Assembly (NCBI GenBank): GCA_041635475.1 | Contig: JBFKVA010000001.1 | Location: forward strand, 1 to 62,793 | Length of the DNA: 62,793 nucleotides | Source of the DNA: Acidimicrobiia bacterium | GTDB taxonomy: Bacteria > Actinomycetota > Acidimicrobiia > Spongiisociales > JAENVV01 | Direction of reading: 5' to 3' | Shown: one piece after another, positions 5,981 to 40,098 of the stretch | Layout: each line of letters opens with the position of its first letter | How positions within the stretch are numbered: position 1 is the stretch's first letter | Program-made: the position numbers and the translations under genes | The notes under the pieces: model-generated | The model's database searches: none | What the model saw: the letters and a program-made list of their open reading frames with translations, nothing else | What the model was told of the DNA's origin: nothing

Positions 5981-6056
5981 CGTGGTCCTTTGTGGTCTGG
6001 GTCGAGCTTACGTCGGCGGCCGCGATCGTGCGAAGGGCCCGGGTCGAGTGGGCGGC

Positions 6057-7370
6057 TCAGGGGCCCTGGAACTCGTAGATCGGGCCGAGTTCGAGGAGGG
6101 AGGTGAGTTCGTCGAGCGCCCGGCGGCCCTCGTCGAGGAGGGAGGGATCGGCCAGGTCGGTGAGGGCGAGCTCGTCGCGGTAATGGCGGTGAACCCACTG
6201 CTCGAGCCGATCCAACCGATCGCTGTCGGCGATCACGCCCTCTGGCACCGCGGCCAGCTCATCGGGTGTCAGCACCACTCGCAGGCGAAGGCAGGCGGGA
6301 CCGCCTCCGTTCGACATGGACTGGCGGAGGTCAAGGGTGACGACCTCGTCGACTCCCCGGTCCAGGAGCCACTCGGTCGCCTCCTTCGCCTGGGGTTGCT
6401 CGGTGACCTCTGACGGTGCGAGCAGCAGGCGCGCCCCGTCGGGAAGGGCGACGAGCTGGCTGTTGAACAGGTAGCTGTTGACGGCCTGGGACAGGGAGAG
6501 CAGGCGCCTGGGCACGGTCACCACGTGGAGGGAGGCGCCGAGGATCGAACGCATCGCCCCAATCGTCGCGGGTTGGTCGGCGTACGCCTCCTCGTGACAG
6601 ATGAGGAGGTCGCGGTCACCGACCGCGATGACATCGTTGTGGAACACGCCGGCGTCGATGGCGGCGGGGGACTGCTGGGCGAATACGGTCCTGACAGGGT
6701 CGAGCCCGTGCTGGCGGGCGATGGCGGCCGAGGCGAGCGCGGACTGCCGGGCACGATACGTGGATCCGCCGGCACCACCGTGCACGAACAGGTGGACTCC
6801 CGCTCCGTCGTGGGTCCCCGAGGAGAGCCGGGTGTGGTTGGCGGCACCTTCGTCCCCGGACTCACCCGAGCCGGGGATCGCCTCATGGACGACGAATCGC
6901 TCGGTGTCCGCGAAATACCGGGCCAGGACGGAGTGTGTGGTTCGTGACTCGATCGAGCGATGGAGGTGCGACGACAGGTTGGCCGGGGTCAGGTGGACCC
7001 GCCCGTCGAGCGTGTCCGACGACGGGGACACGGTGGCGGCGTTGGCGGTCCACATGGCCGAGGCCGATGACACGGCCGATACGAGGCCGGGGTCCCGGCG
7101 AAACGCACGTGCCAGCACGTCGGTGTCCGATCCGGTGAAGCCGAATCTGCGGAGTGTGGGGAGATGGGGCCGCTCGTGGGGAAGGAGCACGCCCTGGGGA
7201 ATACCCCGCTCGACGAGGAGCCGCATCTTGGCGATGCCCTGGAGGGCGGCGGTCCGTGGTGACGAGACGAGGCGCGCATGTCGTTGGGAGGCGAGGTTTC
7301 CCCGGCCCAGCCCTCCGTAGTGGTGGGTTGGACCGACGAGCCCGTCGAAGTTGACTTCGACCGCGCTCAC
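6057..7370 (-). CDS. astB: N-succinylarginine dihydrolase
   Basis: EVNFDGLVGPTHHYGGL, SASAMWTANAATVSPS, DEGAANHTR, GVFHNDVI, YLFNSQL, QSMSNGGGPACLRLRV. Confidence 0.96.
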   Translation of the reverse strand: MSAVEVNFDGLVGPTHHYGGLGRGNLASQRHARLVSSPRTAALQGIAKMRLLVERGIPQGVLLPHERPHLPTLRRFGFTGSDTDVLARAFRRDPGLVSAVSSASAMWTANAATVSPSSDTLDGRVHLTPANLSSHLHRSIESRTTHSVLARYFADTERFVVHEAIPGSGESGDEGAANHTRLSSGTHDGAGVHLFVHGGAGGSTYRARQSALASAAIARQHGLDPVRTVFAQQSPAAIDAGVFHNDVIAVGDRDLLICHEEAYADQPATIGAMRSILGASLHVVTVPRRLLSLSQAVNSYLFNSQLVALPDGARLLLAPSEVTEQPQAKEATEWLLDRGVDEVVTLDLRQSMSNGGGPACLRLRVVLTPDELAAVPEGVIADSDRLDRLEQWVHRHYRDELALTDLADPSLLDEGRRALDELTSLLELGPIYEFQGP

Positions 7371-8416
7371 AGGACAGTGCGGCCGGGGCGAAGGGGCGTG
7401 ATCCGGACCTCGGCGCCGCCGTCGAGGCCGAGGGTGTCGAGGACGGCCGGGTCCACCTTCAGGGTCCCCTGCGACAGCAGGTAGTGCGTCGTTGCCACGC
7501 AGCGGAAGGACTCGACGCCGGTGCTCGCGATGAGGAGCGGGTCCGGGCCAGGTGGTGGGTTCTCCATCGGAGCGATCACCTCGAGGGCGGACTGGCGGAC
7601 CGCCCTCAGGTCCTTGATGCGCGCGTCGAGGCTGGCCCCGCCGTCGAAGATGTCGACGTAGCCCTGGTAGCGGAAGCCCTCGGATTCGAGGAGGCGGCGG
7701 GCCGGGAGGGTGCTCGGGTGCACCTCGCCGATGACCTTGCGTGCGCTGTCGGGCAGCAGAGGGGCGTAGATCGGGTGCCGGGGCATGAGCTCGGCGATGA
7801 ACGCCCGGTTGCCGGTGGCCGACAGCCGATCAGCCTCCGGGAACGGCAGCTGGAAGAAGTGCCGACCTAGCCCTTCCCAGAACGGGGCCGATCCGTCGTC
7901 GTCCTGGAATCCCCGCATCTCGGCCATGACTCGGTCTGGAAAGCGGTCTGGGTGCTGGGCCATGAACAGCATCCGGGAAAGGCTCAGGAGGCGCCCGTTG
8001 CCGGCTCCGACGTGGTCCTCGTGGAGGTAGAGCGACGCCACCTCGGCGCTCCCCGTGTAGTCGTTCGAGAGGTAGAGCGTGTGGGTCCGCCGGTAGACGC
8101 CGAGCTCCCGGCTGGAGGCCACCGTGGTTCCCACCCGGTAGGAGTAGAACGGCTCGGAGAGGCCGACGGCGCTGAACACCGATGCCGAACCGAGCACCGT
8201 CTCGGTTGCGCCGTCGACGAGGACGAAGAGGTAGTCGTTCTCGGCCGGCATCGGCTCGGCGTTCTCCCACGCCTGTCGGGCGCGCTCCACGCGCGGGGCG
8301 ACGAACTCGTGCTCTGGCCGGATCGACGACATCCCGTTGAGCCGTTCTCCGGCATGGGAGTAGAGCGCGACGAGCCCCTCGATGTCTGACATGAGAACCG
8401 CACGGACGTACATCAT
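7367..8416 (-). CDS. astA: Arginine N-succinyltransferase
   Basis: VGLSEPFYSYR, LSNDYTGSAEVASLYL, GRLLSLSR, AEMRG, PFWEGLGRHFF, FIAELMP, YVDIFDGG. Confidence 0.95.
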   Translation of the reverse strand: MMYVRAVLMSDIEGLVALYSHAGERLNGMSSIRPEHEFVAPRVERARQAWENAEPMPAENDYLFVLVDGATETVLGSASVFSAVGLSEPFYSYRVGTTVASSRELGVYRRTHTLYLSNDYTGSAEVASLYLHEDHVGAGNGRLLSLSRMLFMAQHPDRFPDRVMAEMRGFQDDDGSAPFWEGLGRHFFQLPFPEADRLSATGNRAFIAELMPRHPIYAPLLPDSARKVIGEVHPSTLPARRLLESEGFRYQGYVDIFDGGASLDARIKDLRAVRQSALEVIAPMENPPPGPDPLLIASTGVESFRCVATTHYLLSQGTLKVDPAVLDTLGLDGGAEVRITPLRPGRTVL

Positions 8417-9606
8417 CTGGGTTGCTCCTTTTGCACAAGCGTTGCGGCCCGGGAGAGGAGGACCGCCGTGAGCAACGCGCGCTCGGCGATGCTGTCGGAG
8501 TGGAGGTACTCGCCCACACGGTGGAGGTTGCCGCCGACCGGGCCCAGGTTGTCCACGTTGACGAGGCCCTCGTCGGCCAGGAGGTTACCGTCGCACACGC
8601 CTCCCGTGTCAGCCGCCTCGAGGCGGATGTTCAACTCGCCGGCGATGGCGATCACCTGCTGCAGGAGGCGCTCGTAGGGGGGCGTGCGCGGCTTGGGCGG
8701 CCGTCCGAATCCGCCGTGGAGGGTGGCCGTCAAGCCGTCCCGGGCCGACACCTCGGCCACGAGCGCAGCCAGTTCCGCGCTGACCTGGTCCGCCTGTTGG
8801 GGAGTGCGGACCCGGATGTTGGCCCGCACCACCGCGGTGGCGGGAACGATGTTGACCGCGTCCCCGCCCGAGATGACCCCCGGGTTGGCCAGAAGATCGG
8901 GGTACCTGGTGAAGGCGGCTATCCGCGTGGTGATCTCGGCCGCAGCCACGACCGCATTCCGTCCGAGGTGGTGTTCCCGGCCTGCGTGGGCGGCCCTTCC
9001 TCGCACGGCGATGGCGAAGTTGCCGGAACCGGGACGGGCCGCGGCGATGCCCCCGTCAGGGAACGAGGGTTCGAACCCCAACCCGAGGTCGGCCGTCCGC
9101 GCGGCCTCCCGGATCATCGGGCCGGAACCGGGGGAGCCGACCTCCTCGTCGGGAACGATGAGGAGCCTCCAGCCCACGCGAGGGGCGACGGCGGCCAGGG
9201 ATCCGAGGGCCAGCCACAGTTGCACGATGCCGCCCTTGGCATCGGCCACCCCCGGCCCCGTCACGGGTTCGGTCGAGAAGTCTGCGGGGAAGTCGACGTC
9301 GGGGGAGAAGACGGTGTCGTGGTGCCCGATGAGCAGGACGGCCGGCCCGCTTCCCGGATGGTCGACCGCGACCATCGGTCCGAGCGGTATGTCGCGGGTC
9401 CCGCCCCGGTCGTCGACGTCGATCATGGTCCCCGCCGGGGTCACCGAGACGGACCCGAGATCGGCGAACATCTCGGTGAGGAGGGTCGCCGACGCTTCCA
9501 GGCCATCCAGGTTGTGGGAGTGGGTGTTGATTCCCACGAGCTGTGTGAGGAGGGAACGCCCGCTCGCCGCATTGTCCGCTATCCAGCTATGCAATCTGTC
9601 ATGCAT
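8413..9606 (-). CDS. M20/M25/M40 metallo-hydrolase (PRK07338-like), candidate AstE substitute
   Basis: INTHSHN, IGHHDTVF, GPGVADAKGG, PDEEVGS, FEPS, GRAAHAGR, TGGVCDGN, GGNLH; ATGA overlap with astA; start set at ATG 9606. Confidence 0.85.
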   Translation of the reverse strand: MHDRLHSWIADNAASGRSLLTQLVGINTHSHNLDGLEASATLLTEMFADLGSVSVTPAGTMIDVDDRGGTRDIPLGPMVAVDHPGSGPAVLLIGHHDTVFSPDVDFPADFSTEPVTGPGVADAKGGIVQLWLALGSLAAVAPRVGWRLLIVPDEEVGSPGSGPMIREAARTADLGLGFEPSFPDGGIAAARPGSGNFAIAVRGRAAHAGREHHLGRNAVVAAAEITTRIAAFTRYPDLLANPGVISGGDAVNIVPATAVVRANIRVRTPQQADQVSAELAALVAEVSARDGLTATLHGGFGRPPKPRTPPYERLLQQVIAIAGELNIRLEAADTGGVCDGNLLADEGLVNVDNLGPVGGNLHRVGEYLHSDSIAERALLTAVLLSRAATLVQKEQPR

Positions 9607-9643
9607 GAGTGCGACGCAGCGTACCCGGTAGACTCGCTCGGCG

Positions 9644-10861
9644 ATGCCAGACACCCACATCACCCGGGGGGACTACGAGGCTGTCTTCACCCCCAACTAC
9701 GCGCCCGCCCCCGCGCTCCTCGACCACGGGATCGGCTCCCGGGTGTGGGACACAGACGGCAAGGAGTACATCGATCTCGCTGCCGGGATCGCCGTCAACG
9801 CCTTCGGGCATGCGTCCCCTCAGCTGAGGGAGGTCCTCGAGGAGCAGGCCGCGAAGCTGTGGCATGTGTCCAACGCCTACGCCCACGCGCCGGGGATCGA
9901 ACTGGCCGGGGAGCTCACGACTCGGACCTTCGCCGACAAGGTATTCCTGTGCAACTCCGGGGGCGAGGCCAACGAGGCTGCGCTCAAGCTGGCCCGTCGC
10001 TACGCGTTTGACCGGGGTGAGGTTGATCGGTTCGAGGTCATCTCGTTCGACAAGTCCTTCCACGGCCGGACGTTCTTCACTGTGTCGGTCGGAGGCACCG
10101 AGGCCTATCGGACCGGGTTCGGTCCAGCTCCCCTCGGCATCGTCCACCTCCCGTTCAACGACATGGATGCCGTCGGGGATGCCGTCACCGACCGGACGGC
10201 CGCCGTCCTCGTCGAACCCATCCAGGGTGAAGGCGGTCTCATTCCTGCCGATCCGGCCTTCCTGGGACGTCTCCGGGACCTGTGTTCGGCCCGTGGGGCA
10301 CTCCTCATCTTCGACGAGGTCCAGTCGGGCGTTGGCAGGACCGGCCACCTCTATGCGTACCAGGACTACGGGGTCGTGCCGGACATCCTCACGACGGCCA
10401 AGGGCCTTGGTGGGGGCTTTCCCGTGGCAGCGATGCTCACGACCGACGCGATCGCCTCGTCGTTCGTGGTCGGGACGCACGGCTCGACGTTCGGTGGGAA
10501 CCCGCTGGCCGCCGCGGTCGCAACCCGCGTGCTCCAACTCGTCGACGATCCCGCCTTCTTGGCCGACGTTCGGCGCAAGGCATCCGCGCTCCAGGCGCGG
10601 CTGGAGCGCATTGGGCGCACCAGCGGGGCGTGGGGCGTGGTACGGGGCCGCGGGCTGTGGCTCGGGTGCGTCATGGCGGGCGCATGGGAGGGGCGTTCGG
10701 GCGAGGTGGCCGCGGCCGCGTTCGAGCACGGGGTCATGACGCTCAAGGCCGGCCCGAGCGTCCTGCGCCTGGCACCGGCCCTCAACATCCACGACGAGGA
10801 ACTCGACGAGGGCCTGGTCCGGCTGGAGGCGGCGGTCGGATCCCTCGGCTCCGCCACGTAG
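9644..10861 (+). CDS. astC: Succinylornithine/acetylornithine aminotransferase (class III PLP)
   Basis: YIDLAAGIAVNAFGH, NSGGEANEAALKLAR, FHGRT, VEPIQGEGG, FDEVQSG, TAKGLGGG, HGSTFGGNPL; divergent from astAB (astC versus argD judged by context). Confidence 0.85.
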   Translation: MPDTHITRGDYEAVFTPNYAPAPALLDHGIGSRVWDTDGKEYIDLAAGIAVNAFGHASPQLREVLEEQAAKLWHVSNAYAHAPGIELAGELTTRTFADKVFLCNSGGEANEAALKLARRYAFDRGEVDRFEVISFDKSFHGRTFFTVSVGGTEAYRTGFGPAPLGIVHLPFNDMDAVGDAVTDRTAAVLVEPIQGEGGLIPADPAFLGRLRDLCSARGALLIFDEVQSGVGRTGHLYAYQDYGVVPDILTTAKGLGGGFPVAAMLTTDAIASSFVVGTHGSTFGGNPLAAAVATRVLQLVDDPAFLADVRRKASALQARLERIGRTSGAWGVVRGRGLWLGCVMAGAWEGRSGEVAAAAFEHGVMTLKAGPSVLRLAPALNIHDEELDEGLVRLEAAVGSLGSAT

Positions 10862-10900
10862 GGCGGATCACCCGGCGTCCACCAGGCGTACCATCACCCC

Positions 10901-11680
10901 ATGCAGTTCACCACACTCCAGGTCGACGCCGACGGTCCGGTGGGGCGGATCACCCTCAACCGGCCGGCGTCACTCAACTCGATGACCCCGGCCCTCCTGG
11001 AGGAACTCATCGGGGCTGCTCGCTGGTTCGAGCCCCGCCTTGACGTCAGGGTGGTTGTGATCGAAGGAAACGGGCGTGCGTTCTGTTCCGGGTTCGACCT
11101 TCACTCGTTCGAGGAGATGGCCGGCGGAGACGGTGTGCAACGGAGAGAGGTGTCCGGCCTCGGGGGAAGGATGGCAGACGCCGTCGAGGGGATGCGGGCC
11201 GTCACGGTTGCCGCGCTCCACGGATGGGTGGTGGGTGGGGGAGTCGTGCTCGCCTCGGCCTGCGACCTGCGGGTGGCCGCCAGCGACACCCGATTCCGGA
11301 TCCCCGAGGTCGAGATGGGGCTCCCGCTCAACTGGGGTGGCATTCCCCGTCTGGTCCGCGAGATCGGACCCGCTCGAACCCGGGAGCTCGTCATGACCTG
11401 CCGTGAGTTCTCGGCCGTCGAGGCGTCGACGATGGGGTTCGTCAACACGGTCGTCCCCCCTGAGGACCTCGAGTCGGCGGTCGCCGATCTCACCCACCGG
11501 CTCGTCGGCATGCCTGCGCTGCCGCTCCTGTCCACCAAGTCATCGGTCAACGCGGTGGCCCAGGCGCTCGGGGCGCGAATCGGGACGTCGATGGATGCCG
11601 AGATGTTCCTCGGGGCGAGTCAGTCGCCCGAGTTCAGCGAGGCGGTGCGGGCCTACGTGGAGCGGGTCCAGGGGACGTAG
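10901..11680 (+). CDS. Enoyl-CoA hydratase/isomerase family protein
   Basis: ITLNRP, AFCSGFDL, HGWVVGGG, ACDLRVA, IPEVEMG. Confidence 0.92.
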   Translation: MQFTTLQVDADGPVGRITLNRPASLNSMTPALLEELIGAARWFEPRLDVRVVVIEGNGRAFCSGFDLHSFEEMAGGDGVQRREVSGLGGRMADAVEGMRAVTVAALHGWVVGGGVVLASACDLRVAASDTRFRIPEVEMGLPLNWGGIPRLVREIGPARTRELVMTCREFSAVEASTMGFVNTVVPPEDLESAVADLTHRLVGMPALPLLSTKSSVNAVAQALGARIGTSMDAEMFLGASQSPEFSEAVRAYVERVQGT

Positions 11681-11751
11681 TCCGGCGAGTGGCCGGGGTG
11701 TCGCACGTGCTGGCAGCCGAGGAGATCACCTTCCACGACATCCTGGGCTGA

Positions 11752-12687
11752 TCACGCACTGAACTTGCCGTGGCGCATGAAGTCGGCCTCCATGAGCTCG
11801 AGCTCTCGGGCTCCGGAGATGACGATGTCGGGGTCGGGTGTGAAGTCGAGGTCCGGGTTGCGGTTCCCGTAGGGCACCGAGTTGAGGATCGTCTTGAGTG
11901 CGTTCATTCGGGCCTTCTGCTTGCTCTCCGAACGGATGATCGTCCACGGCGCATCGATGGTGGAGGTCCGCTTGAGCATCTGGTGCTTCATGTCGGTGAA
12001 CTCGTCCCATCGGTCCTGGGCCTGCACGTCCACCTCGCTCAGCTTCCACTGCCGAAGCGGATCGTGGCGTCGACGTTCGAACCGGCGAGCTTGCTCCTCC
12101 TTCGTCACCGAGAAGTAGAGCTTGAGGAGGGTGATGCCCTGGCGGACGAGGTCCTTCTCGAAGCCGGTCACCCCCTTGAGGAAGATCATGTACTCCTCGT
12201 CGGTGCAGAACCCGAAGACAGGCTCGACCATCGCCCGGTTGTACCACGACCGGTCGAAGAGGACGATCTCACCGCCCCGAGGGAAGTGGTTCACGTACCG
12301 CTGGTAGTACCAGAGGGACTTCTCCTCCTCTGTCGGCTTCGGCAGGGCAACGACCCGGTAATGCTTCTCGTTCATGTAACGGGTGACACGACGGATCGTC
12401 CCTCCCTTGCCGGCGGCGTCCCGGCCCTCGAAGAGAACGATCATTCGCCCGTTCGTGGCTTCGAGGTGCTTCTGGAGCTTGAGCAGCTCCACCTGGTAGG
12501 GCCGGAGCCGTCGGTCCTTCTCGCGCTTCTTGCGGGCAGCAGCCCCTTCGGTGGCCAGCAGTTCGGCCTCCGAGAGAAGCTCACGCAGCCGCCTGATCTC
12601 GGCGTTGAGGAAGGACACGTCGAGGACGGGGTCGGACCCCGGCTCCGGAGGCGGGCCGTCGAGCTGTGACGCGTGGGGATCAGTCAT
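11752..12687 (-). CDS. ppk2: Polyphosphate kinase 2
   Basis: FEGRDAAGKGG Walker A, FDRSWYNR, DPLRQWKLS; start at ATG 12687 overlapping the recombinase 3' end. Confidence 0.95.
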   Translation of the reverse strand: MTDPHASQLDGPPPEPGSDPVLDVSFLNAEIRRLRELLSEAELLATEGAAARKKREKDRRLRPYQVELLKLQKHLEATNGRMIVLFEGRDAAGKGGTIRRVTRYMNEKHYRVVALPKPTEEEKSLWYYQRYVNHFPRGGEIVLFDRSWYNRAMVEPVFGFCTDEEYMIFLKGVTGFEKDLVRQGITLLKLYFSVTKEEQARRFERRRHDPLRQWKLSEVDVQAQDRWDEFTDMKHQMLKRTSTIDAPWTIIRSESKQKARMNALKTILNSVPYGNRNPDLDFTPDPDIVISGARELELMEADFMRHGKFSA

Positions 12688-13684
12688 CGCCGTCAAGCCT
12701 ACCGGGGTCCCCATCGCGGTCAACGCCGGCGAAGCGTTCGATCGCCGAGCTGGCCGCGGAGGTCTCGACCGCCGAACGAAGGTGGTCGGGTTGTGCGGAG
12801 AGGTATCGCCTGGTCGTGTTGAGAGAGGAATGGCCCAGGAGTGTCTGCAGCTCGACGATGTCGGCGCCATGGCCCAGGAGGTCCATGGCGAACGTGTGGC
12901 GCAAGGCGTGGACGAGGGCGCCGTCCGGCACGGCACTGCGCACTCCCGCCTCCCGGTACAGGCGTTCGACGAGGTACTGCACCTGGCGGGGGGTCACAGG
13001 CTTCCCGGAGCGGCCGACGAACATCGGCGTTCGGTGGTCGTCGAGACGGTGGTCGGGGAACCCTTCGGAGCGCTCCTCCTGGTATCCCCCGATGAGGGCG
13101 GCGACACCGTCGGTGACAGGGATGGTTCGTGCTTTCCTGCCCTTGCCGACCACCGTCACCTGCCAGGCACCGGGTTCCCCGGTGAGCGCTCCCGTCGTGA
13201 GCGACGTGAGTTCTGCCAGCCGCAACCCGGCCTGGGCCAGGAGGGCAACGATGGCCGCGTCCCGGCGGGGCCAGGCCGACCTCGAGGTGGAGCCGGCGGC
13301 CGCGGCCAGGAGTCTCCCGACGAGACCATCCACCTGGATGGAACGCACCGCCTGTGATCCCGCCTTGGCCCGGGGGATCACGTCAAGGGGGTTCTCGACC
13401 ACCGCGCCCTCGGACCTGAGAAAGCCGAAGAAGGCCGTCCACGTCGAATGCGTTCGGCTCATCGTGGCCGGTGACGATCGGTCCGCGCGGGCAGCCAAGC
13501 CGCGCCGGATGCTCCCAACGGTGAGGTCGCCGAGCCTGAGCTCACCACGGTGCGAGCCCATGTCGGCGGCGATGAGGTCGGCGACCAGCCGGAGATCACG
13601 CCGGTAGGCGGCCACCGTGTGGTCGGACTTCTTGGCTGCCCTCAGGGAGTCGAGGAACTGCTCGATGGCCGTGTCGAGGAGCAT
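12680..13684 (-). CDS. Tyrosine recombinase (XerC/XerD-like) with intact catalytic residues
   Basis: SAM-like N-domain (SDHTVAAYRRDL...ENPL); R (AGLRLAEL), K (GKGRK), HxxR (HALRH), H (LLGH), Y (TTRRY); no phage or IS genes nearby. Confidence 0.93.
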   Translation of the reverse strand: MLLDTAIEQFLDSLRAAKKSDHTVAAYRRDLRLVADLIAADMGSHRGELRLGDLTVGSIRRGLAARADRSSPATMSRTHSTWTAFFGFLRSEGAVVENPLDVIPRAKAGSQAVRSIQVDGLVGRLLAAAAGSTSRSAWPRRDAAIVALLAQAGLRLAELTSLTTGALTGEPGAWQVTVVGKGRKARTIPVTDGVAALIGGYQEERSEGFPDHRLDDHRTPMFVGRSGKPVTPRQVQYLVERLYREAGVRSAVPDGALVHALRHTFAMDLLGHGADIVELQTLLGHSSLNTTRRYLSAQPDHLRSAVETSAASSAIERFAGVDRDGDPGRLDGDD

Positions 13685-13696
13685 CCGGGCAGGGTA

Positions 13697-13733
13697 CCCG
13701 TGGCCGGGCACGAATCCCCGGTGCGGCCACGGG
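13697..13733. promoter_or_regulatory. Inverted repeat over the recombinase/baeRF divergent promoter region
   Basis: CCCGTGGCCG-N17-CGGCCACGGG, adjacent to the minus-strand TACCCT -10 (13691-13696) of the recombinase. Confidence 0.4.
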
Positions 13734-13817
13734 GGGCCGCATGGCCGGGGCCGGCCGAGCGACAGGCAACTAGCCTTCGGTGGGTGGCGGAGAGCCCGCC
13801 ACGGAAATGAGGTACCG

Positions 13818-14966
13818 ATGCGTACACGCATGGACATCGTGACCGTCCCTTGGCTCAAGGCGCTCTCCTCCCACCAGCCGGGTCCGTGTGTATCGATCTA
13901 CATGCCAACGCATCGAACCGGGGGGCAGGGGAGGGAGCAGGATCCCCTCCGGCTCAAGAACCTCCTGGGTGAGGCCGATCGGGAACTGGCAGACCTCGGG
14001 CACCGGTCACCCGACATCCGCGCGCTGCTTCAGCCGGGGTTCGATCTCGTGTCCGATGGGGGAGCGTGGGCTGCTCCCGAGGATGGACTGGCAGTGTTTG
14101 CCTCGCCCAGCCACTTCCAGATCCTCCGCCTCCCGGCCGACTTCCAGGAACTCGTGGTCGTGTCGGACAAGTTCCACGTGCGACCGCTCCTCCCGACGCT
14201 GGCGGTTGGCCATTCGTTCTACGTGATCGCGCTCTCCAAGGGGGCGACCCACCTCTACCGCGGCACCCGCTACCGGATCTCGGAGACCGAAGTGCCCGAG
14301 TTGCCGGCCGGCATGGAGGAGGCCCTGTGGTTCCTCGATCGGGAGGGTCAGCTTCAGCATCGATCGGGGGGTGGCCGGGCGATATTCCACGGCCACGGCG
14401 GCGTCAAGGACACCACCGAGGACGAGCTCATCCAGTACCTGCGCATGGTCGACAAGGCGGTCTCGGGGCTCCTGGCCGGCCAGCGTGTGCCGCTCGTGGC
14501 CGCCGGGCTCGACGGCGTCGTGGCCCGGTACCGCCAGATCGCCCGCCATCCCCACTTGCTCGACGAGGCGATCCTGGGCAACCCGGACGACCTCAGTCTG
14601 GCCGACCTCCATGCGGCGGCGTGGTCCGTCGCCGAACCCCGCTACATCGAACTGCGTGAACGTCAGGAGCGGGCGATGGAGGCGAACCTGGGCGGGCCGG
14701 CCACCTCGCTGGACCTGGACGACATCGCTCGAGCGGCGTTCCAGGGGCGGGTCGACGCGCTGTGGATAGCCAAGGGTGTCCGCCGATGGGGTCGCTGGAA
14801 CCCCATCGAGGACGTCCTCGAGATCCACGAAGAGCGGCTACCCGGCGACTACGACGTCGTTGATCGTATCGCCATCACCGCCTGGGAGCGGGGTGCCGCG
14901 CTCTACGTCGATGAGGCCTGGAAGACGCCGGGTTCCGGACCGCTCAGCGCGCTGTACCGCTACTGA
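13818..14966 (+). CDS. Bacterial archaeo-eukaryotic release factor family protein (baeRF3/baeRF7-like)
   Basis: GPCVSIYMPTHR, DPLRLKNLL, DGLAVF, KFHVRPLL, FYVIALS, FHGHGG, GNPD, AFQGRVDAL, terminal ALYRY; GAGGT RBS. Confidence 0.8.
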   Translation: MRTRMDIVTVPWLKALSSHQPGPCVSIYMPTHRTGGQGREQDPLRLKNLLGEADRELADLGHRSPDIRALLQPGFDLVSDGGAWAAPEDGLAVFASPSHFQILRLPADFQELVVVSDKFHVRPLLPTLAVGHSFYVIALSKGATHLYRGTRYRISETEVPELPAGMEEALWFLDREGQLQHRSGGGRAIFHGHGGVKDTTEDELIQYLRMVDKAVSGLLAGQRVPLVAAGLDGVVARYRQIARHPHLLDEAILGNPDDLSLADLHAAAWSVAEPRYIELRERQERAMEANLGGPATSLDLDDIARAAFQGRVDALWIAKGVRRWGRWNPIEDVLEIHEERLPGDYDVVDRIAITAWERGAALYVDEAWKTPGSGPLSALYRY

Positions 14967-15014
14967 ACCCGCCCCCCGGTACGGCATCGAGGAAACGCGC
15001 TCTAGCCTTGCCCG

Positions 15015-16529
15015 ATGACCATTGATGAAGTGTTCGCAGCACTCGGACTGCGTACGGACCATCCCGGGGCTTTCGACGGCGAGTGGCTGGAAACCACCGG
15101 CGGCCGACTGTCGATCCTGAATCCGACGAGCGGGGAGGAGCTGGCGGGGATCCGAGCGGCCACGCTCCCCGAGTATGACCGGGTGGTGGACGCGGCCCAG
15201 ATGGCGTTCATTGAGTGGAGGCAGCTCCCTGCTCCCAAGCGCGGCGAGTACGTCCGGCGAATCGGTGATGCGCTGCGGGACAAGCGCGACGCACTGGGGG
15301 AGTTGGTGACCCTCGAGATGGGGAAGATCAGGGCTGAGGGTGTCGGCGAGGTCCAGGAGATGATCGACATCTGCGACTTCGCCACGGGGCTCTCCCGCCA
15401 GCTGTACGGCCTGACAATGCCGTCTGAACGACCGCAGCACCGCATGTATGAGCACTGGCACCCCCTGGGGCCCGTGGGAGTCATCACCTCCTTCAACTTC
15501 CCGGTCGCGGTGTGGGCGTGGAACGCTGCCATCGCCGCGGTGTGCGGCGACACGATCGTGTGGAAGCCCTCGCAGCGCACCCCGCTCACCGCGATCGCAG
15601 TCACGCGGATCGCCGCCGAGGTCATGGCGGGGTCTGGATATGAGGCGGTCTTCTCGCTGGTGGTGGGCACCGGGTCCGAGGTCGGCTCGGCCATGACCAG
15701 CGATGCCCGGCTTCCACTCATCTCGGCCACCGGCTCCTGCCGGATGGGCCGGATCGTAGGCGTCGAGGTTGCCCAAAGGTTCGGACGAAGCCTCCTCGAA
15801 CTCGGAGGCAACAACGCTGCGATCGTGCTCCCTGATGCCGACCTCGACCTGACGGTGCGAGCGATCGTCTTCGGGGCGGTGGGGACCGCCGGCCAACGCT
15901 GCACGACCCTCCGCCGGGTGCTTGCGCACGCAGACATCGTCGAGGAGCTCATCGAACGCCTGGTCAACGCCTACACGTCGATCCCCATCGGAGATCCGAT
16001 GGACGATGCGACCCTCATGGGTCCCCTGGTGGGGGAGGGGGCGCTCGACGACATGCAGGAGGCACTGGAAGCCGCCATCGATCAGGGTGGCGAAGTGGTC
16101 ACCGGCGGCAGCATCCTCGACCGACCAGGATGGTTCGTCACGCCGGCCATCGTGCGGATCGACCATGACGCCCCGATCACCAAGGTCGAGACCTTCGCAC
16201 CCATCCTCTACGTGAGCGCGGTCGCCAGCCTGGAGGAGGGCATCGACGCCAACAACGCAGTGACGCAGGGCCTCTCGTCCGCGATCTTCTCGGACTCGGT
16301 CCGAGCAACCGAGCAGTTCCTCTCCCACGCTGGCAGCGACACGGGCATTGCCAACGTCAACATCGGGACCTCGGGTGCCGAGATCGGAGGAGCGTTCGGT
16401 GGCGAGAAGGAGACGGGCGGAGGGAGGGAGGCGGGGTCGGACGCGTGGAAGGCCTACATGCGCAGGCAGACCACCACCATCAACTGGGGCGACGACCTTC
16501 CCCTCGCCCAAGGCGTCGAGTTCGGATAG
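15015..16529 (+). CDS. Aldehyde dehydrogenase family 7 (alpha-aminoadipic semialdehyde/piperideine-6-carboxylate dehydrogenase-like)
   Basis: GEVQEMIDICDFATGLSRQLYG, FNFPVAVW, LELGGNNA, GTAGQRCTT, ETFAP, GAEIGGAFGGEKETGGGRE. Confidence 0.93.
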   Translation: MTIDEVFAALGLRTDHPGAFDGEWLETTGGRLSILNPTSGEELAGIRAATLPEYDRVVDAAQMAFIEWRQLPAPKRGEYVRRIGDALRDKRDALGELVTLEMGKIRAEGVGEVQEMIDICDFATGLSRQLYGLTMPSERPQHRMYEHWHPLGPVGVITSFNFPVAVWAWNAAIAAVCGDTIVWKPSQRTPLTAIAVTRIAAEVMAGSGYEAVFSLVVGTGSEVGSAMTSDARLPLISATGSCRMGRIVGVEVAQRFGRSLLELGGNNAAIVLPDADLDLTVRAIVFGAVGTAGQRCTTLRRVLAHADIVEELIERLVNAYTSIPIGDPMDDATLMGPLVGEGALDDMQEALEAAIDQGGEVVTGGSILDRPGWFVTPAIVRIDHDAPITKVETFAPILYVSAVASLEEGIDANNAVTQGLSSAIFSDSVRATEQFLSHAGSDTGIANVNIGTSGAEIGGAFGGEKETGGGREAGSDAWKAYMRRQTTTINWGDDLPLAQGVEFG

Positions 16530-16567
16530 GTCTTCAGGCGCCGGCGCAGTCTGTCGATACCGGGTGC

Positions 16568-17026
16568 ATGTCCCAACCCTCGACCCCGGATCCGTTGTGG
16601 GGTCGTTTGAGCGCCATATACGCCACCACACGACCGCACAACGACCAGCGCCACCGCTGGTGGGCTGCCGTGATGCTGGTTGGCGTGCTGGCGACGGCGT
16701 GCGGTGGGGGAGGGGCCGACGATCCTGCCTCCCTCGTGCCATCCCTCGAGGCCGCCGAGACGCTCGTCCCGCGGGCGCTCGTGTGCCCCGCCCTGGACGC
16801 CACGGAGCAGGAGTACCGACCGCTCCTCCAGGGGTCCTTGGAGGAGCTGGAGGATGAGATCCCGGTGTCCGTCCGGGAGGCCTCGACCCAGGCATGGGTC
16901 TCGGGTGGGGCCAGGATCAAGATCGGGATCTGGAACGACGCCAATGCCCGACCGACGGCCATGATGTTCGTGGCCGACCTGGGGGACGGTCTCTTCGGCC
17001 TCTCCAAGGTGCGGTACTGCTCCTAG
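16568..17026 (+). CDS. Hypothetical lipoprotein
   Basis: Hydrophobic stretch with lipobox LATA-C followed by GGGG; start uncertain. Confidence 0.6.
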   Translation: MSQPSTPDPLWGRLSAIYATTRPHNDQRHRWWAAVMLVGVLATACGGGGADDPASLVPSLEAAETLVPRALVCPALDATEQEYRPLLQGSLEELEDEIPVSVREASTQAWVSGGARIKIGIWNDANARPTAMMFVADLGDGLFGLSKVRYCS

Positions 17027-17209
17027 TCGTTGACGGGCCTTGGCCAGAGCACCCTCGGGGTGTGCCTTCCCGGTGAGGTCGTCGTCATCGTCCACCTGTT
17101 CGATCCCGATGGCACCCTCGACCGGGTCGCAACGGCCGAGGCCATCGTGGAACGCGCAGCCGAGGCCATCGCGAGGTAGGCACACGGGGAGGTGGCGTAG
17201 CATCTGCCC

Positions 17210-17491
17210 ATGGCCACCACCGGCAACAACCAAGCAGCGCTGGGCTGGATCTCCGGCCTCGGGTTGGCGGTCGCTCCCTGGCTCGTGGCCGGCGTCATCA
17301 GCACGTTCCTGCCGGACCCGGAGTCGATGTTTCCGCCGACGTTCGTCGCCGCCTTCGTCGGCATGGTGGCCTGGATCATCTTCGGCTCGATCCGCCTTCC
17401 CGGCTTCCGCCGGGGCGCACTCTCCGGCTCGGCCATCTCTGCCGGGCTCGCCGGCGCCCTCTACATCGCGGTGCTCATCGCCCAGCCCTGA
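17210..17491 (+). CDS. Small three-TM membrane protein
   Basis: Three hydrophobic segments; TAGCAT 6 nt upstream of ATG. Confidence 0.7.
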   Translation: MATTGNNQAALGWISGLGLAVAPWLVAGVISTFLPDPESMFPPTFVAAFVGMVAWIIFGSIRLPGFRRGALSGSAISAGLAGALYIAVLIAQP

Positions 17492-17515
17492 CGATCTCCC
17501 TGCCACGGATCTCGC

Positions 17516-18895
17516 TCAGTCGTCGACGAGCTTGTCGAAGACCCACCGACCGAGCCGAGAGGGGTGCCCGGTGTCCTCACCTGCGTCGAGGATCCGGGCG
17601 AGGCGGTCAGCGCCGTGGACGGCCAGCCAACGGATCGGTTCCGGCTCCCACCTGCGAGGCGCGGGACGTGCCAGGACCGGGGGAGTGGGGTGCCGGCCCG
17701 ACCGGCCGACGACGGCGTCCGCCAGGCAGCGGGCAGCGACGTTGGACAGGAGGACCCCGTCCCCGCTGTAGCCGCCCGCCGCCCCCAGCCCGGTGGCGGT
17801 GTCGAAGTCGACGAATGGCTCCCAGTCACGAGGTATGGCGAGAACGCCGCCCCACTCGTGGGTCACGTCGATGTCGGGGAGGCGGGGAAACATCGCCGAG
17901 AGCGTCGCCCGGAGTCGTCGGCTGATGGACGCGGAGACATCGTGGGTGGGGGAGATACCGGACCGCCAGTGGTAGGAGAGGCCCCGGCCGCCGATGGCGA
18001 TGCGGCCTCCTTCGGTGCGCTGCGCGTAGAAGAAGTGACGGGCGCCATCCGACAGGGTTGCGTCATCATCCCATCCGATCTCGGACCACAGGTCCGCCGC
18101 CAGGGGTGGAGTGGCGATCATGTGCGAGTACACCGGGAGCAGGCTTCGGGTGTGGCCTGCCAACAACGGCGTGTACCCCTCCGTCGTCCGCACCACGACC
18201 GGCGCGCTGAGGCGGCCGCCGGGCGTCGAGACCTCGCCTTGACGTAGACCCGTGGCAACCGTGTCCTCCAGGATGACCACGCCCCGCCGCTCGGCCGCCT
18301 CTGCCAACCCCCAGACGAGCCGGGCAGGGTCGACGGCGGCGCTGTGGGGGCTGAACGCCGAGGCCATCGCCCCGTGAACGCGGGCGTCCGGGGCCTGTTC
18401 GATCCCGATGTGGTCGGGTCCGAACCCGAAGGCCCGGTACTCGTCGACCATGCGCCGCAGCCGGCCGACCTGGGAGGGGTTGGTCGCCACCCAGCGCATA
18501 CCGCCACGACGCCACCCACACTCGATACGCTCCCGTCCCAGCACGGACTCGATCTCATCGAGGGCCGCGACGGCAGCGGTCTGGAGGTCGATCGCCGCCT
18601 GGCGGCCGCGACGCCGCGCAAGTGCTGTCAATCCGATCGGCAGCACCGGGGAGCAGAAACCGCCGTTCCGGCCGGAGGCGCCGCTCCCGACCCGAGCCGC
18701 CTCGACCACCACGACCGCCAGGTCCGGGTCCGCGCCTGCCAGGTAGTACGCCGTCCACAGGCCGGTGAACCCGGCGCCCACGATCACGACATCGGCCGCC
18801 CGGTCGCCATCCAGCGGTGCTCGCGGGGGTGGTCGGAGATCCGCGTCCCACCACAGACATTGGGATGGAACCCCGAAGTTGGCGGCGTTGGTCAC
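17516..18895 (-). CDS. FAD-dependent oxidoreductase (DAO/PuuB-like family)
   Basis: ADVVIVGAGFTGLWTAY, GASGRNGG, WGG, GGYSGDGV; GTG start at 18895 with TAGCGT 7 nt upstream. Confidence 0.9.
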   Translation of the reverse strand: MTNAANFGVPSQCLWWDADLRPPPRAPLDGDRAADVVIVGAGFTGLWTAYYLAGADPDLAVVVVEAARVGSGASGRNGGFCSPVLPIGLTALARRRGRQAAIDLQTAAVAALDEIESVLGRERIECGWRRGGMRWVATNPSQVGRLRRMVDEYRAFGFGPDHIGIEQAPDARVHGAMASAFSPHSAAVDPARLVWGLAEAAERRGVVILEDTVATGLRQGEVSTPGGRLSAPVVVRTTEGYTPLLAGHTRSLLPVYSHMIATPPLAADLWSEIGWDDDATLSDGARHFFYAQRTEGGRIAIGGRGLSYHWRSGISPTHDVSASISRRLRATLSAMFPRLPDIDVTHEWGGVLAIPRDWEPFVDFDTATGLGAAGGYSGDGVLLSNVAARCLADAVVGRSGRHPTPPVLARPAPRRWEPEPIRWLAVHGADRLARILDAGEDTGHPSRLGRWVFDKLVDD

Positions 18896-18971
18896 GGTCC
18901 CAACGCTAGGCACCGACACGGCAGGGGTGAGGCCGCGCCGTGCGCTCGTCTCCCGCGGGCATCTCCCCAAT

Positions 18972-18999
18972 GTGGTGCATAACGTCGGTTATGCACCAC
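18972..18999. other. dif-like recombination site: perfectly symmetric 11-6-11 palindrome
   Basis: GTGGTGCATAA-CGTCGG-TTATGCACCAC; ATAA-N6-TTAT core as in dif; intergenic, AT-rich for this genome, no U-tract, at the gene-strand switch. Confidence 0.7.
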
Positions 19000-21312: not shown

Positions 21313-21969
21313 TCAGAGGCCCGGCAGACGAGCCTGGCCGTTCCGACCCCTCCCCCACGGCAAGCCCTCCACCCACGACCATGATGTCCGGTGCACCACC
21401 GAGGGCCCCCACTGATGGAGGCCGGCCTGGTGGGCCGGTGAGGGGTAGCCCTTGTTGGAGGCGAAGTCGTACCACGGGAACCGCTCCCCCATCTCTGCCA
21501 TGTGGGCATCCCGATGGTCCTTGGCGATCACACTGGCCGCGGCGATCGCCAAGGATCGCCGGTCGCCCTTCACGAGCGTCCGCCCGCCGCCGACGAAGTC
21601 CCAGTGGCCATCGACGAGCACGACGTCCGGTCGGTCACCGAGTTCGGCGAGGGCCCGCCGCGCCGCCAGGCGGTGGGCGGCGGACATACCGAGGGCATCG
21701 CATTCGGCGGCCGACGCCTCCCCGATCGCCCAGCGCAGTGCCCAGGACTTGATACGAGGGGCCAGGTCCCTCCGGCGGATGGCGGACAGTTGTTTCGAAT
21801 CGCGCACTCCCCTGAGGCGGATCCCCGGTGGCGGAACAACCACCGCCACTGTGAGTGGCCCTGCCCACGCCCCGCGGCCGACCTCATCGACGCCGGCCAC
21901 CGTGCGCCCGGCCGACCATGCCCGGGACTCCTCGGTGAGCGGAGGAGCTGGTGTGCGGAGGCGGGCCAT
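21313..21969 (-). CDS. rnhB: Ribonuclease HII
   Basis: VAGVDEVGRGAWAGP, VRDSKQL, VLVDG, VKGD, IAAASVIAK, NKGYPS, HRTSW. Confidence 0.95.
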   Translation of the reverse strand: MARLRTPAPPLTEESRAWSAGRTVAGVDEVGRGAWAGPLTVAVVVPPPGIRLRGVRDSKQLSAIRRRDLAPRIKSWALRWAIGEASAAECDALGMSAAHRLAARRALAELGDRPDVVLVDGHWDFVGGGRTLVKGDRRSLAIAAASVIAKDHRDAHMAEMGERFPWYDFASNKGYPSPAHQAGLHQWGPSVVHRTSWSWVEGLPWGRGRNGQARLPGL

Positions 21970-22494
21970 CTAGTTGAGTCCGGGGTCGTGGGGCATTGTA
22001 CGAAGCACCCGCATGCTGTCGGGGAGTCGGTTCACGACCCGCTCCCACAGGCCGCGTGGATCGGGATCGAGCACGTCATCAACCTCGGGTCGAACGATGA
22101 GCCAGGCGCTCTCGCCCATTTCGTCCTCGAGTTGACCGGCACCCCACCCCGAGTACCCGGCGAAGACGCGCAGGGCGGCGACGCCCTCCGGCTCGGTGGC
22201 AAGATCCACGAGCCCCACCTCGCCGTGTCCCGAGGTCATCCGGGCCAGGCCGATCGCCGACTCGACCGCCACCGGTCCGCCGAGGAAGACGACCGGCGGT
22301 TCCACGATGAACCGGTCCCACTCGGGCAGGATGCCCCGGGCATCCATGTCGGTCGGGTTGTTGATGACGAGGCCCATCGCACCGTCCGCGTTGTGCTCGA
22401 TGATGAAGACGACCGTGCGTCGGAAGTTCGGGTCCCACAGGTGGGGCGCCGAGATGAGGAGGGAACCCTCGAGCGAGCGCGGAACACCAGCCAT
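21970..22494 (-). CDS. YqgE/AlgH (UPF0301) family protein
   Basis: LWDPNFRRTVV, GAMGLVIN, FLGGPV, FAGYSGWGAGQLEDE, C-terminal DPGLN. Confidence 0.93.
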   Translation of the reverse strand: MAGVPRSLEGSLLISAPHLWDPNFRRTVVFIIEHNADGAMGLVINNPTDMDARGILPEWDRFIVEPPVVFLGGPVAVESAIGLARMTSGHGEVGLVDLATEPEGVAALRVFAGYSGWGAGQLEDEMGESAWLIVRPEVDDVLDPDPRGLWERVVNRLPDSMRVLRTMPHDPGLN

Positions 22495-22565
22495 GGTCGG
22501 ATGCTACGTCGGGTTCCTTCTGTTGACGGGTATCGTGGGCCGCTCCGCCAGCCTTGGAGTGAGCA

Positions 22566-23578
22566 TTGCTCCGAATCGGTCTCATGGGCCTCGGTCGCAT
22601 CGGCCGCAACCTGTTCCGCCAACTCCTCGACCATCCGTCCCTGGAGATCGTCGCGATCTGCGACATCGCCGACCCCGGGGCCCTGACCTACCTCCTCAAG
22701 TACGACTCCATCTACGGGCGCCTCGATCGTCCGGCGGCGTTCGAGTCGGGGGCGCTCCTGGTGGACGGCCGTTCGATACCCTGGCTGGCAGGACGCGAAC
22801 CCGGCGACGTGGATTGGGCCTCGGTGGGCGTCGACGTCGTCGTCCAGGCTGTCGGCCGGTACCGAACACGAGCGGACGTCGAGCGCCACCTCGGCCGCGG
22901 TGCCACCCGGGTGCTCCTGGCCTCCACCCCCGAGGTACCCGGGGATCTCCCCATTCTCATCCCGGGTATCAACGACGAGGTCCTCACGCCGGCGGCCAAG
23001 GTCATGGCGATGGGTTCGAACACCGCCCATGCGGTGGGTCCCGTCCTGCGCATCCTCAACTCGACCTTCGGCATCCGACGGGCCTACTTCACCACCGTGC
23101 ATGCGTTCAGCGCCTCCCAGCGCCTGGCGGACGTCCCCACCGAGGGGTTCCGGACGAGTCGGGCGGCCGGTGAGAACATCATTCCCTCCCCCACCAACTC
23201 ACCCGAGATCCTCGCCCAGGTACTGCCCGAACTTGCCGGGAAGCTGCAAGCGATGGCCCTCAACGTCCCGGTCCCCGACGGCTCCACCGTGGATCTCGTC
23301 GCCCACCTGGAGAGCCAGACGTCGGTGGTCGAACTCAACGCCTCCATCAAGAGCGCCTCGGTGGCCCGGTTCGAGGGCATCCTCGAGTACACGGAGGATC
23401 CCATCGTCTCGTCCGACGTCATCGGCTCACCGGCGTCGGGCGTCTTCGACTCCAAGGCCACGATGGTCATGGGCGGTGACCTGGCCAAGGTCATCATCTG
23501 GTTCGACAACGGCTGGGGGTACACGGCCCGCATGGTCGAGGCCCTCGAGCGGTTCAACGCCATGAAGGAGGCCGGAGC

Positions 23579-23582
<4 letters not shown>
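22566..23582 (+). CDS. GAPDH-like protein lacking the catalytic cysteine (putative pseudoenzyme)
   Basis: GLGRIG, LLKYDS, TTVHA, ENIIP, VPVPDGS, WFDNGWGY; MGSNTAHA in place of NASCTTNC; GGAG RBS with TTG start. Confidence 0.88.
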
Positions 23583-24591
<1,009 letters not shown>

Positions 24592-24595
<4 letters not shown>

Positions 24596-25356
24596 CGCGT
24601 GGCGACGAAGAACAGCCGCCGGAAGGCCAGCACGCACGTCCCGTCCCCCCGCTGGGGGTAGGCGTCGCCCACGCGGGCCCGGTAGGCCTCGTAGAACGCT
24701 GCGGCCTCCTCCTCGTCGAGCGCCGAGAGAAACGGCCTGAGTGCCGTGCCCCTGGTCCACTCGGCCACGGCATCGGGTCCGTGGAGCGGCAGGTGGTAGT
24801 CGACCTCCCACAGGTCTAAGGTGCGGACGAGCCCCGACAACACGTCCCAGTACGCGGTGGGATCGTCGACCGGCCACTCCCGGGGAGCCAGGACCGGCTC
24901 GAGGCGAGCCCGCCATGGGCCGGAGCGGACCGTGTCGGCGATGAGCCGATGACTGGGGCGGTCGTGGTTCCGCGGCATCTGCACCGCCAGGACCCCTCCG
25001 GGCGCCAGCGCATCGATCAGCCGGGGGAAGAGCCGGGCGTGGTCGTCGACCCAGTGAAGAGCGGCGTTCGAGTACAGCAGGTCGGTCCCGGGTGGCGGGG
25101 CCCACGTTGCTGCGTCGGCGACCACGAGGTCGTCGGCACCGACTGCCCGGGCCAGCATCTCGGGGGAGGAGTCCACCCCGATGAGTCGAGCAGCCGGGAA
25201 GCGAGCCCGAAGGGCCTCGAACATGGCACCCGTCCCACACCCAAGGTCGACGACGGTCGATGCGGACCGCAAGGGGACGCGCGCGAGGAGTTCAAGGGCC
25301 GGTCGCAGGCGCGGCGCAGCGAACCTCTCGTACTGTGCGACGTCCCACGGGTGCAC
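24592..25356 (-). CDS. tam: Trans-aconitate 2-methyltransferase-like SAM methyltransferase
   Basis: WDVAQYERF...RLRPALELL, VDLGCGTG, SNAALHW, LAVQMP, GTALRP, FRRLF. Confidence 0.88.
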
Positions 25357-25998: not shown

Positions 25999-26019
25999 GG
26001 GTGAGACCATACTGCGCCC

Positions 26020-27177: not shown

Positions 27178-27181
27178 TCCG

Positions 27182-28874: not shown

Positions 28875-28899
28875 CCGATGCGTCCTTCTCCTGGGCGTA

Positions 28900-28917: not shown

Positions 28918-28930
28918 ACCCAGAGGTGAC

Positions 28931-29577: not shown

Positions 29578-29589
29578 CCAACGAGCCTA

Positions 29590-33360: not shown

Positions 33361-33364
33361 GCGC

Positions 33365-40097: not shown

Positions 40098-40098
40098 G

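Follow-up and report, generated by a model that had tools for sequence, protein, structure and literature searches.

Chromosome dimer resolution is nearly universal, and there are few exceptions to the rule that it takes two recombinases: XerS, XerH, archaeal XerA and XerL. Each of these single-recombinase exceptions has taught something about the order of strand exchange and its coupling to FtsK. Here we describe a candidate for a further exception in the window, by which we mean the whole stretch of 62,793 nucleotides analysed from contig JBFKVA010000001.1 of an Acidimicrobiia bacterium (assembly GCA_041635475.1, hereafter G000), in which a palindromic, dif-like site of 28 bp is accompanied by the gene of a tyrosine recombinase of the Xer type.

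XerS, XerH, XerA and XerL are the single-recombinase systems described in the passages of two reports on which our comparisons draw (PMC5357621, PMC9765430), and a passage of Kono et al. 2011 (PMC3025954) gives a predicted dif of the XerCD type for all 66 Actinobacteria analysed there. The literature that we covered, which took in passages of Smyshlyaev et al. 2021 (PMC8138268) and did not extend to the supplementary dif tables of Kono et al. 2011 and of Carnoy and Roten 2009, contained no description of Actinomycetota with a single-Xer system. Our results indicate that the site is very probably the chromosomal dif and that it is served by this single Xer, which would resolve dimers there; we regard the pair as a putative new single-recombinase Xer/dif family, analogous to those of XerS, XerH, XerA and XerL. 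The single-recombinase interpretation had been put forward in a preliminary description of the window, and every computational test proposed with it came out in its favour.

The site and its recombinase

Two features of the window carry the argument:

18972..18999, no strand assigned: candidate dif site, GTGGTGCATAA-CGTCGG-TTATGCACCAC, in an 11-6-11 arrangement
12680..13684, minus strand: sole Xer-type tyrosine recombinase, 334 aa from a probable ATG at 13684

The contiguous 28-mer at 18972-18999 reads GTGGTGCATAACGTCGGTTATGCACCAC with 0 mismatches. It is the sole match in the window when up to 3 mismatches are allowed (0 of 100 shuffles matched), and at the same tolerance it is single-copy in the whole of G000 (2,721,128 bases in 194 contigs, 95.55% complete), not repeated many times as a repetitive extragenic palindromic (REP) element or an operator would be. 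The pattern ATAA-N6-TTAT has one match in all of G000, the candidate dif site itself; by our own arithmetic the 8-base core alone should occur about once by chance at 68% GC, and the 7 extra paired arm bases would not be expected. The arms GTGGTGCATAA and TTATGCACCAC are perfect 11-base inverted copies of each other. The centre, CGTCGG, is non-palindromic, and the site therefore has a direction. The exact intergenic 11-6-11 site of 28 bp with inverted arms reported in the preliminary description is thus confirmed, as a single-copy site in the range of ~28-31 bp with inverted arms around a short centre. The symmetry claimed for its arms is perfect in G000 and is not general over the full 11 bases: perfect 11-base symmetry is peculiar to this genome (10 of 11 in bin G052), and the core kept among relatives comprises the 8 arm bases nearest the centre on either side, GT(G/A)CATAA-N6-TTATGC(A/G)C. 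In this form the palindromic site is single-copy in 6 relatives of G000 (G003, G008, G009, G013, G014 and bin G052).

The open frame of the recombinase extends from 12680 to 13858 on the minus strand, where it reaches a TTG, and xer is transcribed away from the site, with 5.29 kb between the gene start and the site. The product has the PF02899 (SAM-like N-terminal) and PF00589 (catalytic, 92.8 bits) domains, and its alignment to E. coli XerD (1a0p) keeps the Arg in GLRLAEL, the Lys in GKGRKAR, the HxxR in HALRHTF, the His in LLGHSS and the Tyr in RRY. R155, K181, H259, R262, H285 and Y294 are invariant across 19 clade members, and we read these columns as the putative catalytic residues R-K-H-R-H-Y. 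With PF00589 and the R-K-H-R-H-Y set both present, the protein belongs to the tyrosine recombinases, and the intact recombinase announced at ~5.3 kb from the site is borne out in both domains and distance.

The family models placed the protein outside the named Xer types. It scored 177.3 bits on the XerC model (TIGR02224, cut-off 335.15), 143.9 bits on the XerD model (TIGR02225, cut-off 329.6), 124.4 bits on the XerA model (NF040815, cut-off 220) and 65.2 bits on the XerS model (NF003462, cut-off 267). The core segments of canonical local XerC proteins (281 aa each) were likewise under the XerC cut-off, at 293.9-302.2 bits, and those of canonical local XerD proteins reached 299.3-308.7 bits on the XerD model. 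For XerH the comparison is one between PDB chains only, 40.7 bits for the H. pylori chain 5jjv vs 76.9 for XerD 1a0p. We then built a tree from 45 Xer sequences (8 from genomes, 17 metagenome proteins, 18 canonical proteins, and E. coli XerC and XerD; two partial second matches were omitted). Besides one clade of XerC type and one of XerD type, it contains a third (100% support in the Shimodaira-Hasegawa-like approximate likelihood ratio test, SH-aLRT; branch 1.66), which holds the window protein and all its database homologues and may attach to either the XerC or the XerD side. This phylogeny, of a kind that the preliminary description had proposed, separates the recombinase and its relatives from the XerC and XerD proteins of the order. 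The recombinase is thus not simply XerC-like; it is a member of a third clade, at 177 bits on the XerC model vs a cut-off of 335. Some source annotations name genes of this clade 'XerC/XerD', and these names would thereby be corrected.

When G000 was searched with PF00589, the XerC model and the XerD model, each search gave this xer and, on contig C62, two integrase-type genes. These searches revealed neither a canonical XerC nor a canonical XerD in G000, and a pattern search revealed no canonical dif of the TTATGT(C/A)AA type, which is the outcome that the single-recombinase interpretation had called for. One Xer-type recombinase per genome is thus what we found in G000 and also in relatives, all of these genomes being metagenome-assembled. 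The two genes on C62 (C62:9651-12348, near a contig end) are a phage-type integrase of 420 aa and a partial, integrase-like open reading frame (ORF) of 264 aa, probably remnants of a mobile element. An FtsK with FtsK_SpoIIIE and FtsK_gamma domains is encoded on contig C36 of G000.

Strand polarity around the site

The congener G003 carries the site at 706,793 on a 1.34-Mb contig (C6), and we analysed 800 kb around it. Mean GC skew was +0.021 left of the site and -0.011 right of it, and the maximum of the cumulative skew was a broad plateau at ~726-806 kb, that is, 20-100 kb right of the site; contig C1 of G000 showed no sharp GC-skew switch at the site. Since the skew was not sharp, we used a polar motif as the marker. 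Strand-polar octamers were sought de novo in G003, in the outer 280 kb on each side only (306-586 kb and 826-1106 kb). The top polar octamer was CGGGGGAG (z = 8.0), together with overlapping variants and the 7-mer GGGGGAG, which we presume to resemble the KOPS of E. coli, polar sequences that orient FtsK. Across the order, GGGGGAG and CGGGGGAG are strongly polar along the replichores (G003 C6, G035 C1, G000 C1), with ratios of up to 20:0 on some contigs of G000.

The orientation of GGGGGAG switches at the site. In G003 the peak of the cumulative orientation (706,077) and the first reverse copy (709,144) bracket the site, with 127 forward and 32 reverse copies to its left and 28 and 141 to its right. 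On contig C1 of G000 the corresponding counts are 10 and 1 on the left and 14 and 47 on the right over the whole contig, and the interval of the flip, from the last forward copy at 17,948 to the first reverse copy at 21,350, contains the site. Within the window the copies are arranged as follows:

5231..17954, plus strand: forward GGGGGAG run left of the site, 10 copies at 5231, 9130, 9301, 11237, 14058, 15296, 16031, 16706, 17679 and 17948
21350..60367, minus strand: reverse GGGGGAG copies right of the site, at 21350, 21484, 23186, 25669, 26199, 29280, 30963, 31361, 41285, 44995, 49517, 49711 and 60361

The sole reverse copy left of the site is at 269, and the forward exceptions right of it within the window are at 25162, 37809 and 50668. 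Summed over the short contigs of G013, G014, G052 and G009, 7 forward copies and 1 reverse copy lie left of the site, and 0 and 7 right of it. As a positive control we used G035, a genome with XerC and XerD, in which GGGGGAG flips at the canonical dif at 1,586,586 (29 forward and 1 reverse on the left, 4 and 37 on the right), as does the GC skew. Taken together with the flips in G000 and G003, this control indicates that the motif converges on the canonical dif in XerCD genomes and on the palindromic site here. The site therefore lies where the putatively FtsK-orienting motif converges, as a terminus site would, and the GC-skew peak agrees with it approximately; of the placement at the terminus, the part that stands is the sharp flip of the polar motif at the site, and the part that does not is a matching GC-skew switch, which is broad and ~70-90 kb away.

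Linkage and distribution of the two components

The recombinase gene and the site are genetically linked: they are 5.3 kb apart in G000, the spacing is 4.3 kb for G003 and 4.6 kb for G013, and contig C41 of G052 has them within 56 bp of each other. In each case xer is read in the direction leading away from the site. A scan of a genome collection with the single protein gave 10 relatives at 52% identity or more, and metagenome contigs scanned with the clade alignment gave 80 loci with relatives at 37-63% identity. In 27 of the 80 loci we found 29 ATAA-N6-TTAT sites, with 6-11 of 11 arm positions symmetric; 28 of the 29 are upstream of xer, and in 20 loci the distance is 16-151 bp. There are 21 distinct sequences among these sites, several loci being near-duplicates, and a control core, AATA-N6-TATT, had 0 matches in the same 582,156 bases. 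The arms vary by recombinase subclade (GTGCATAA, CTGGCATAA, ACGGATAA, GATGCATAA, CATGCATAA) and retain their symmetry, a pattern that would be expected of a homomeric binding site. Around the sites of 24 of the 27 loci (the three shortest, L229, L286 and L288, were left out of this count) GGGGGAG occurs 25 times forward and 3 times reverse on the left, and 4 and 60 times on the right. The polarity flip at the palindromic site is thus seen in G000, in five relatives (G003, G013, G014, G052 and G009) and in 24 metagenome loci.

We searched 61 genomes of the same order, G000 included, 52 of them outside the genera g1, g6 and g7 and 9 within (the unpublished G025 and G036 are among the 52; dropping them shifts the counts by two). 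All 52 genomes outside these genera had at least 2 XerC-model matches, and each of the two canonical pairs that we examined consists of one XerC-type and one XerD-type protein. The XerC-model scores are bimodal, 260.9-326.4 bits for canonical proteins vs at most 183.3 bits for the others, with the gap empty. The 9 genomes of g1, g6 and g7 have no canonical Xer and no canonical dif; the divergent Xer is present in 7 of them (163.8-183.3 bits; genomes 65-96% complete) and the palindromic site, each time single-copy, in 6 (G000, G003, G008, G009, G013 and G014). For the canonical dif we used a pattern derived from a Frankia dif quoted in a passage of Kono et al. 2011 (PMC3025954). By our own reading of the lists, CATAAT-N5-TTATGT(N)AAG is recovered with it in 41 of the 52 XerCD genomes and in 0 of the 9, and the full canonical dif of the order is A(G/A)CGCCCATAA-TCCACG-TTATGT(A/C)AAGT. 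Most sister genera and the rest of the order therefore have XerC, XerD and an asymmetric dif. The palindromic site co-occurs with the recombinase clade both in related genomes and on metagenome contigs, in agreement with the expectation of the preliminary description.

In an RpoB tree of 17 of the 22 genomes of the family, a single branch (99% SH-aLRT) lies between the XerCD genera and the group of g1, g6 and g7, which fits one replacement event. The class was sampled more widely with 201 genomes of at least 85% completeness (the unpublished G225 counted among the XerCD genomes), 7 of which have one weak XerC-model match only. A profile of the clade (A1) matched 8 genomes at E <= 1e-55, exactly those 7 and G151. 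Families f1, f4, f15 and f43 contain the single-Xer genomes that have a clade member; clade members elsewhere are in G121, G132 and G202 (f4), G063 and G068 (f15), G195 (f43) and G151 (f36), and all of these except G151 have no canonical XerC or XerD. The Xer proteins of G121, G132, G202, G063 and G068 show 34-40% identity to the window protein. The preliminary description had spoken of a trait of this lineage; a single Xer does occur there, and it is not confined to it, as it is found in several Acidimicrobiia families. The third Xer lineage, with its symmetric dif upstream, could be a self-contained module that displaced XerC, XerD and dif several times in Acidimicrobiia (f1, f4, f15, f43) with GGGGGAG kept, a scenario for which we consider the chances evenly balanced.

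We propose the following mechanism. Two protomers of the one recombinase would bind the two near-identical arms and two sites would synapse as a homotetramer, with the asymmetric 6-base centre setting the direction of the site. FtsK, which is present with a gamma domain, would be steered by GGGGGAG to the site at septation and, much as with XerS and XerH, would trigger or license strand exchange. The module of xer and site, probably adjacent to each other in the ancestor, would have replaced XerC, XerD and the asymmetric dif on one occasion, before g1, g6 and g7 diverged, and would also occur in other Acidimicrobiia families.

Several observations weigh against this interpretation. Binding, cleavage, resolution and FtsK dependence are predicted functions, as the analysis is purely computational, and the genomes are all metagenome-assembled and fragmented, with related genomes as non-independent samples. 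In both G003 and G000 the GC skew reaches a broad maximum ~70-90 kb away from the site. Two of the 9 genomes of g1, g6 and g7 have no Xer at all (G008, 72% complete; G009, 89%), and the site is missing from the assemblies of three (G001, G002 and G016), where a looser search was also empty. These three missing sites are partly explained by a contig that stops 1.1 kb past the aldehyde dehydrogenase (ALDH) gene in G001, by a run of N straight after a truncated ALDH, at the expected position of the site, in G002, and by incompleteness in G016 (84% complete). Likewise, 53 of the 80 metagenome loci are without ATAA-N6-TTAT in the stretch examined, and in 51 of the 52 site-less loci scanned there is no AT-cored palindrome within 450 bp upstream. 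In the long site-less loci GGGGGAG has mostly one orientation throughout, and dif is therefore not adjacent there. L169, one of the 10 relatives from the genome collection, has no site within the 14 kb examined, and the orientation of the motif suggests that its dif lies beyond the contig start.

The remaining points concern single genomes and one genus. Bin G052 has both systems, XerC, XerD and a canonical dif on C133 and the divergent xer with the palindromic site on C41 (loci L062 and L296), with polar motifs aimed at both sites; it may be a mixed bin or have two replicons. G151 joins a clade member with Xer matches of canonical strength. In six other single-Xer genomes (G121, G132, G202, G063, G068 and G195) dif was not located: no palindrome was found near the xer genes of the first five, and the sole CATAA-N6-TTATG matches, on G202 C5 and on G063 C14 and C82, were rejected for poorly symmetric arms and for the lack of a motif flip, which was looked for at two candidates, in G202 and G063. 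Finally, genus g6 has extra repeats, CACATAA-CGGCAC-(A/T)TATG, on short contigs (G008 C117, C193 and C226; G013 C157 and C168; loci L157-L160 and L011). Each short contig has two of them at a spacing of 280-1300 bp, and one copy is situated 230 bp away from the main site; these repeats could be modules that depend on Xer, or could be unrelated to it.

Neighbouring genes, alternatives and related systems

The candidate dif is intergenic, between the start of a gene for a flavin adenine dinucleotide (FAD) oxidoreductase and the stop, at 19247, of a small Zn-ribbon gene:

17516-18970 (ORF), minus strand: DAO-type FAD oxidoreductase, Pfam domain from residue 60
19247-19591, minus strand: small Cys-rich, Zn-ribbon-like protein that matches no Pfam family

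The likely DAO start is ~75-150 bp downstream of the site. Neither the Zn-ribbon protein nor two small ORFs at 16.4-17.5 kb matched a Pfam family. A homologue of the Zn-ribbon gene adjoins the dif-like site in G003, G014 and G009 and is ~4 kb off in G013, which could be plain synteny or the mark of an accessory factor. The other neighbours encode PPK2, a baeRF-family protein and ALDH, besides the DAO oxidoreductase. The baeRF gene (family 7/3, archaeo-eukaryotic release-factor-like; 13617-14966, plus strand) stands divergent beside xer and is syntenic in 4 of 4 g1 genomes. A scan of 10 ORFs at 11.7-21.8 kb gave no match to a mobile-element family, in line with the earlier statement that the locus has no phage, insertion sequence (IS) or integrative and conjugative element (ICE) cargo.

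The persistence of the small Zn-ribbon gene near the site in three genera raises the question of whether the site is dif, with a recombinase that needs a second partner, either non-Xer or divergent, or an accessory such as the Zn-ribbon protein. The outer 3 arm bases, which differ in relatives and often give one arm as GTACATAA and the other as GTGCATAA, would also suit two different partners. We consider such a requirement highly unlikely: apart from the integrase-type pair on C62 no other tyrosine recombinase was found, arm symmetry holds in every subclade, and XerS, XerH, XerA and XerL act as single recombinases according to passages of PMC5357621 and PMC9765430.

The position of the site also agrees with a palindromic operator, bound by a transcription factor for DAO, the Zn-ribbon gene or xer and unrelated to dimer resolution. 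It precedes the likely DAO start by ~75-150 bp and follows the Zn-ribbon gene, whose homologue is beside or, in G013, ~4 kb from the site in four relatives, and in 20 metagenome loci it is directly upstream of xer, so that an extra autoregulatory role is possible. An operator for DAO was rejected, as DAO is missing beside the site of the congener G003, in which the site is nevertheless kept. For any operator, neither the exact convergence of the polar motif in 6 genomes and 24 metagenome loci nor the phyletic replacement of the canonical dif would be expected, and this is the sole ATAA-N6-TTAT in 2.7 Mb; we hold an operator without a part in resolution to be even less probable than a partner.

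It is extremely improbable that an ordinary XerC/XerD pair with its dif is present and was left unassembled or unbinned, with the recombinase as an accessory paralogue. With 95.55% completeness and 194 contigs G000 leaves some room for it, and the bins G052 and G151 do combine clade members with Xer of canonical strength. The same gap would, however, have to recur in 7 genomes of 3 genera (65-96% complete), which have the divergent Xer and none canonical, when 52 of 52 others have at least 2, and 7 of the 8 genomes with a clade member in the class sample are also without a canonical Xer. Moreover, the motif converges on the palindromic site, and one such convergence is possible per replicon.

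That xer and site are the integrase and attachment site of a (formerly) mobile element, or a module for plasmid dimer resolution, is barely credible, as the tight adjacency of the two in many loci, which resembles a portable module, their presence in bin G052 besides a complete XerCD/dif set and the extra dif-like repeats of g6 are outweighed by the lack of a second site copy (no attR) at up to 3 mismatches, the lack of a mobile family in 10 neighbouring ORFs with synteny conserved within the genus, the position of the site at the chromosomal polarity switch of a 1.34-Mb contig, and the agreement of the Xer grouping with the RpoB grouping inside the family.

If the palindromic site is indeed a dif served by one Xer, it would be the first single-recombinase system in Actinomycetota. 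If, further, such a module has repeatedly displaced XerC, XerD and dif, one recombinase with near-identical arms can take over FtsK-coupled resolution in a lineage that had used two, and differing arms could not dictate the order of strand exchange, which would fall to the 6-bp centre or to FtsK. This bacterial family would offer a natural comparison, as its sister genera share the motif and the type of FtsK and differ in having XerCD and an asymmetric dif, or a single Xer and a symmetric one, and the co-variation of arms and subclades would provide ready-made specificity pairs. In practical terms, dif and the KOPS-like motif would together be a marker for the terminus in metagenome-assembled genomes of Acidimicrobiia, and GGGGGAG could be used for orienting and ordering the contigs of such genomes in the order.

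Compared with the canonical XerC/XerD/dif system of the order, the one proposed here has the same 11-6-11 geometry, the same ATAA and TTAT inner arm ends and the same convergence of GGGGGAG. The canonical system differs in its two recombinases and asymmetric dif, and its proteins score 294-302 and 299-309 bits on their own models vs 177 and 144 here. XerH/difH of Helicobacter and Campylobacter likewise has a single recombinase with dif near its gene, according to a passage of PMC5357621; the arms of difH are imperfect and AT-rich, XerH has 354-362 aa, and our protein matches its structure 5jjv weakly (40.7 bits). Archaeal XerA/dif shares the single recombinase, a dif of 28 bp whose centre has 6 bp, and short skewed motifs whose orientation inverts there, as described in the same source (PMC5357621). 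XerA is reported to be FtsK-independent, in archaea without FtsK, whereas an FtsK with a gamma domain is present here, and our protein reaches 124.4 bits on the XerA model (cut-off 220).

XerL/dif of Legionellales, as presented in passages of an mBio paper of 2022 (PMC9765430), is alike in its single recombinase, in the long, uninterrupted inverted-repeat arms of the site and in that the site was missed by homology searches. According to that source (PMC9765430), the Legionellales dif was identified through its conservation, its position at the terminus and its variable flanks. The distance between xerL and dif exceeds 400 kb in L. pneumophila (PMC9765430), whereas here the distance ranges from 56 bp to 5 kb, in a comparison made by description only. 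XerS/difSL of streptococci and lactococci also consists of one recombinase and a gene-linked site module at the terminus, with FtsK-orienting polar motifs, in the parts of Castillo et al. 2017 (PMC5357621) on which we draw. It belongs to another phylum, and the two differ in build: difSL has 31 bp, an 11-bp centre and unequal arms, and XerS has 356 aa, whereas the site described here has 28 bp, a 6-bp centre and near-identical arms, with a recombinase of ~334 aa that scores 65.2 bits on the XerS model (cut-off 267).

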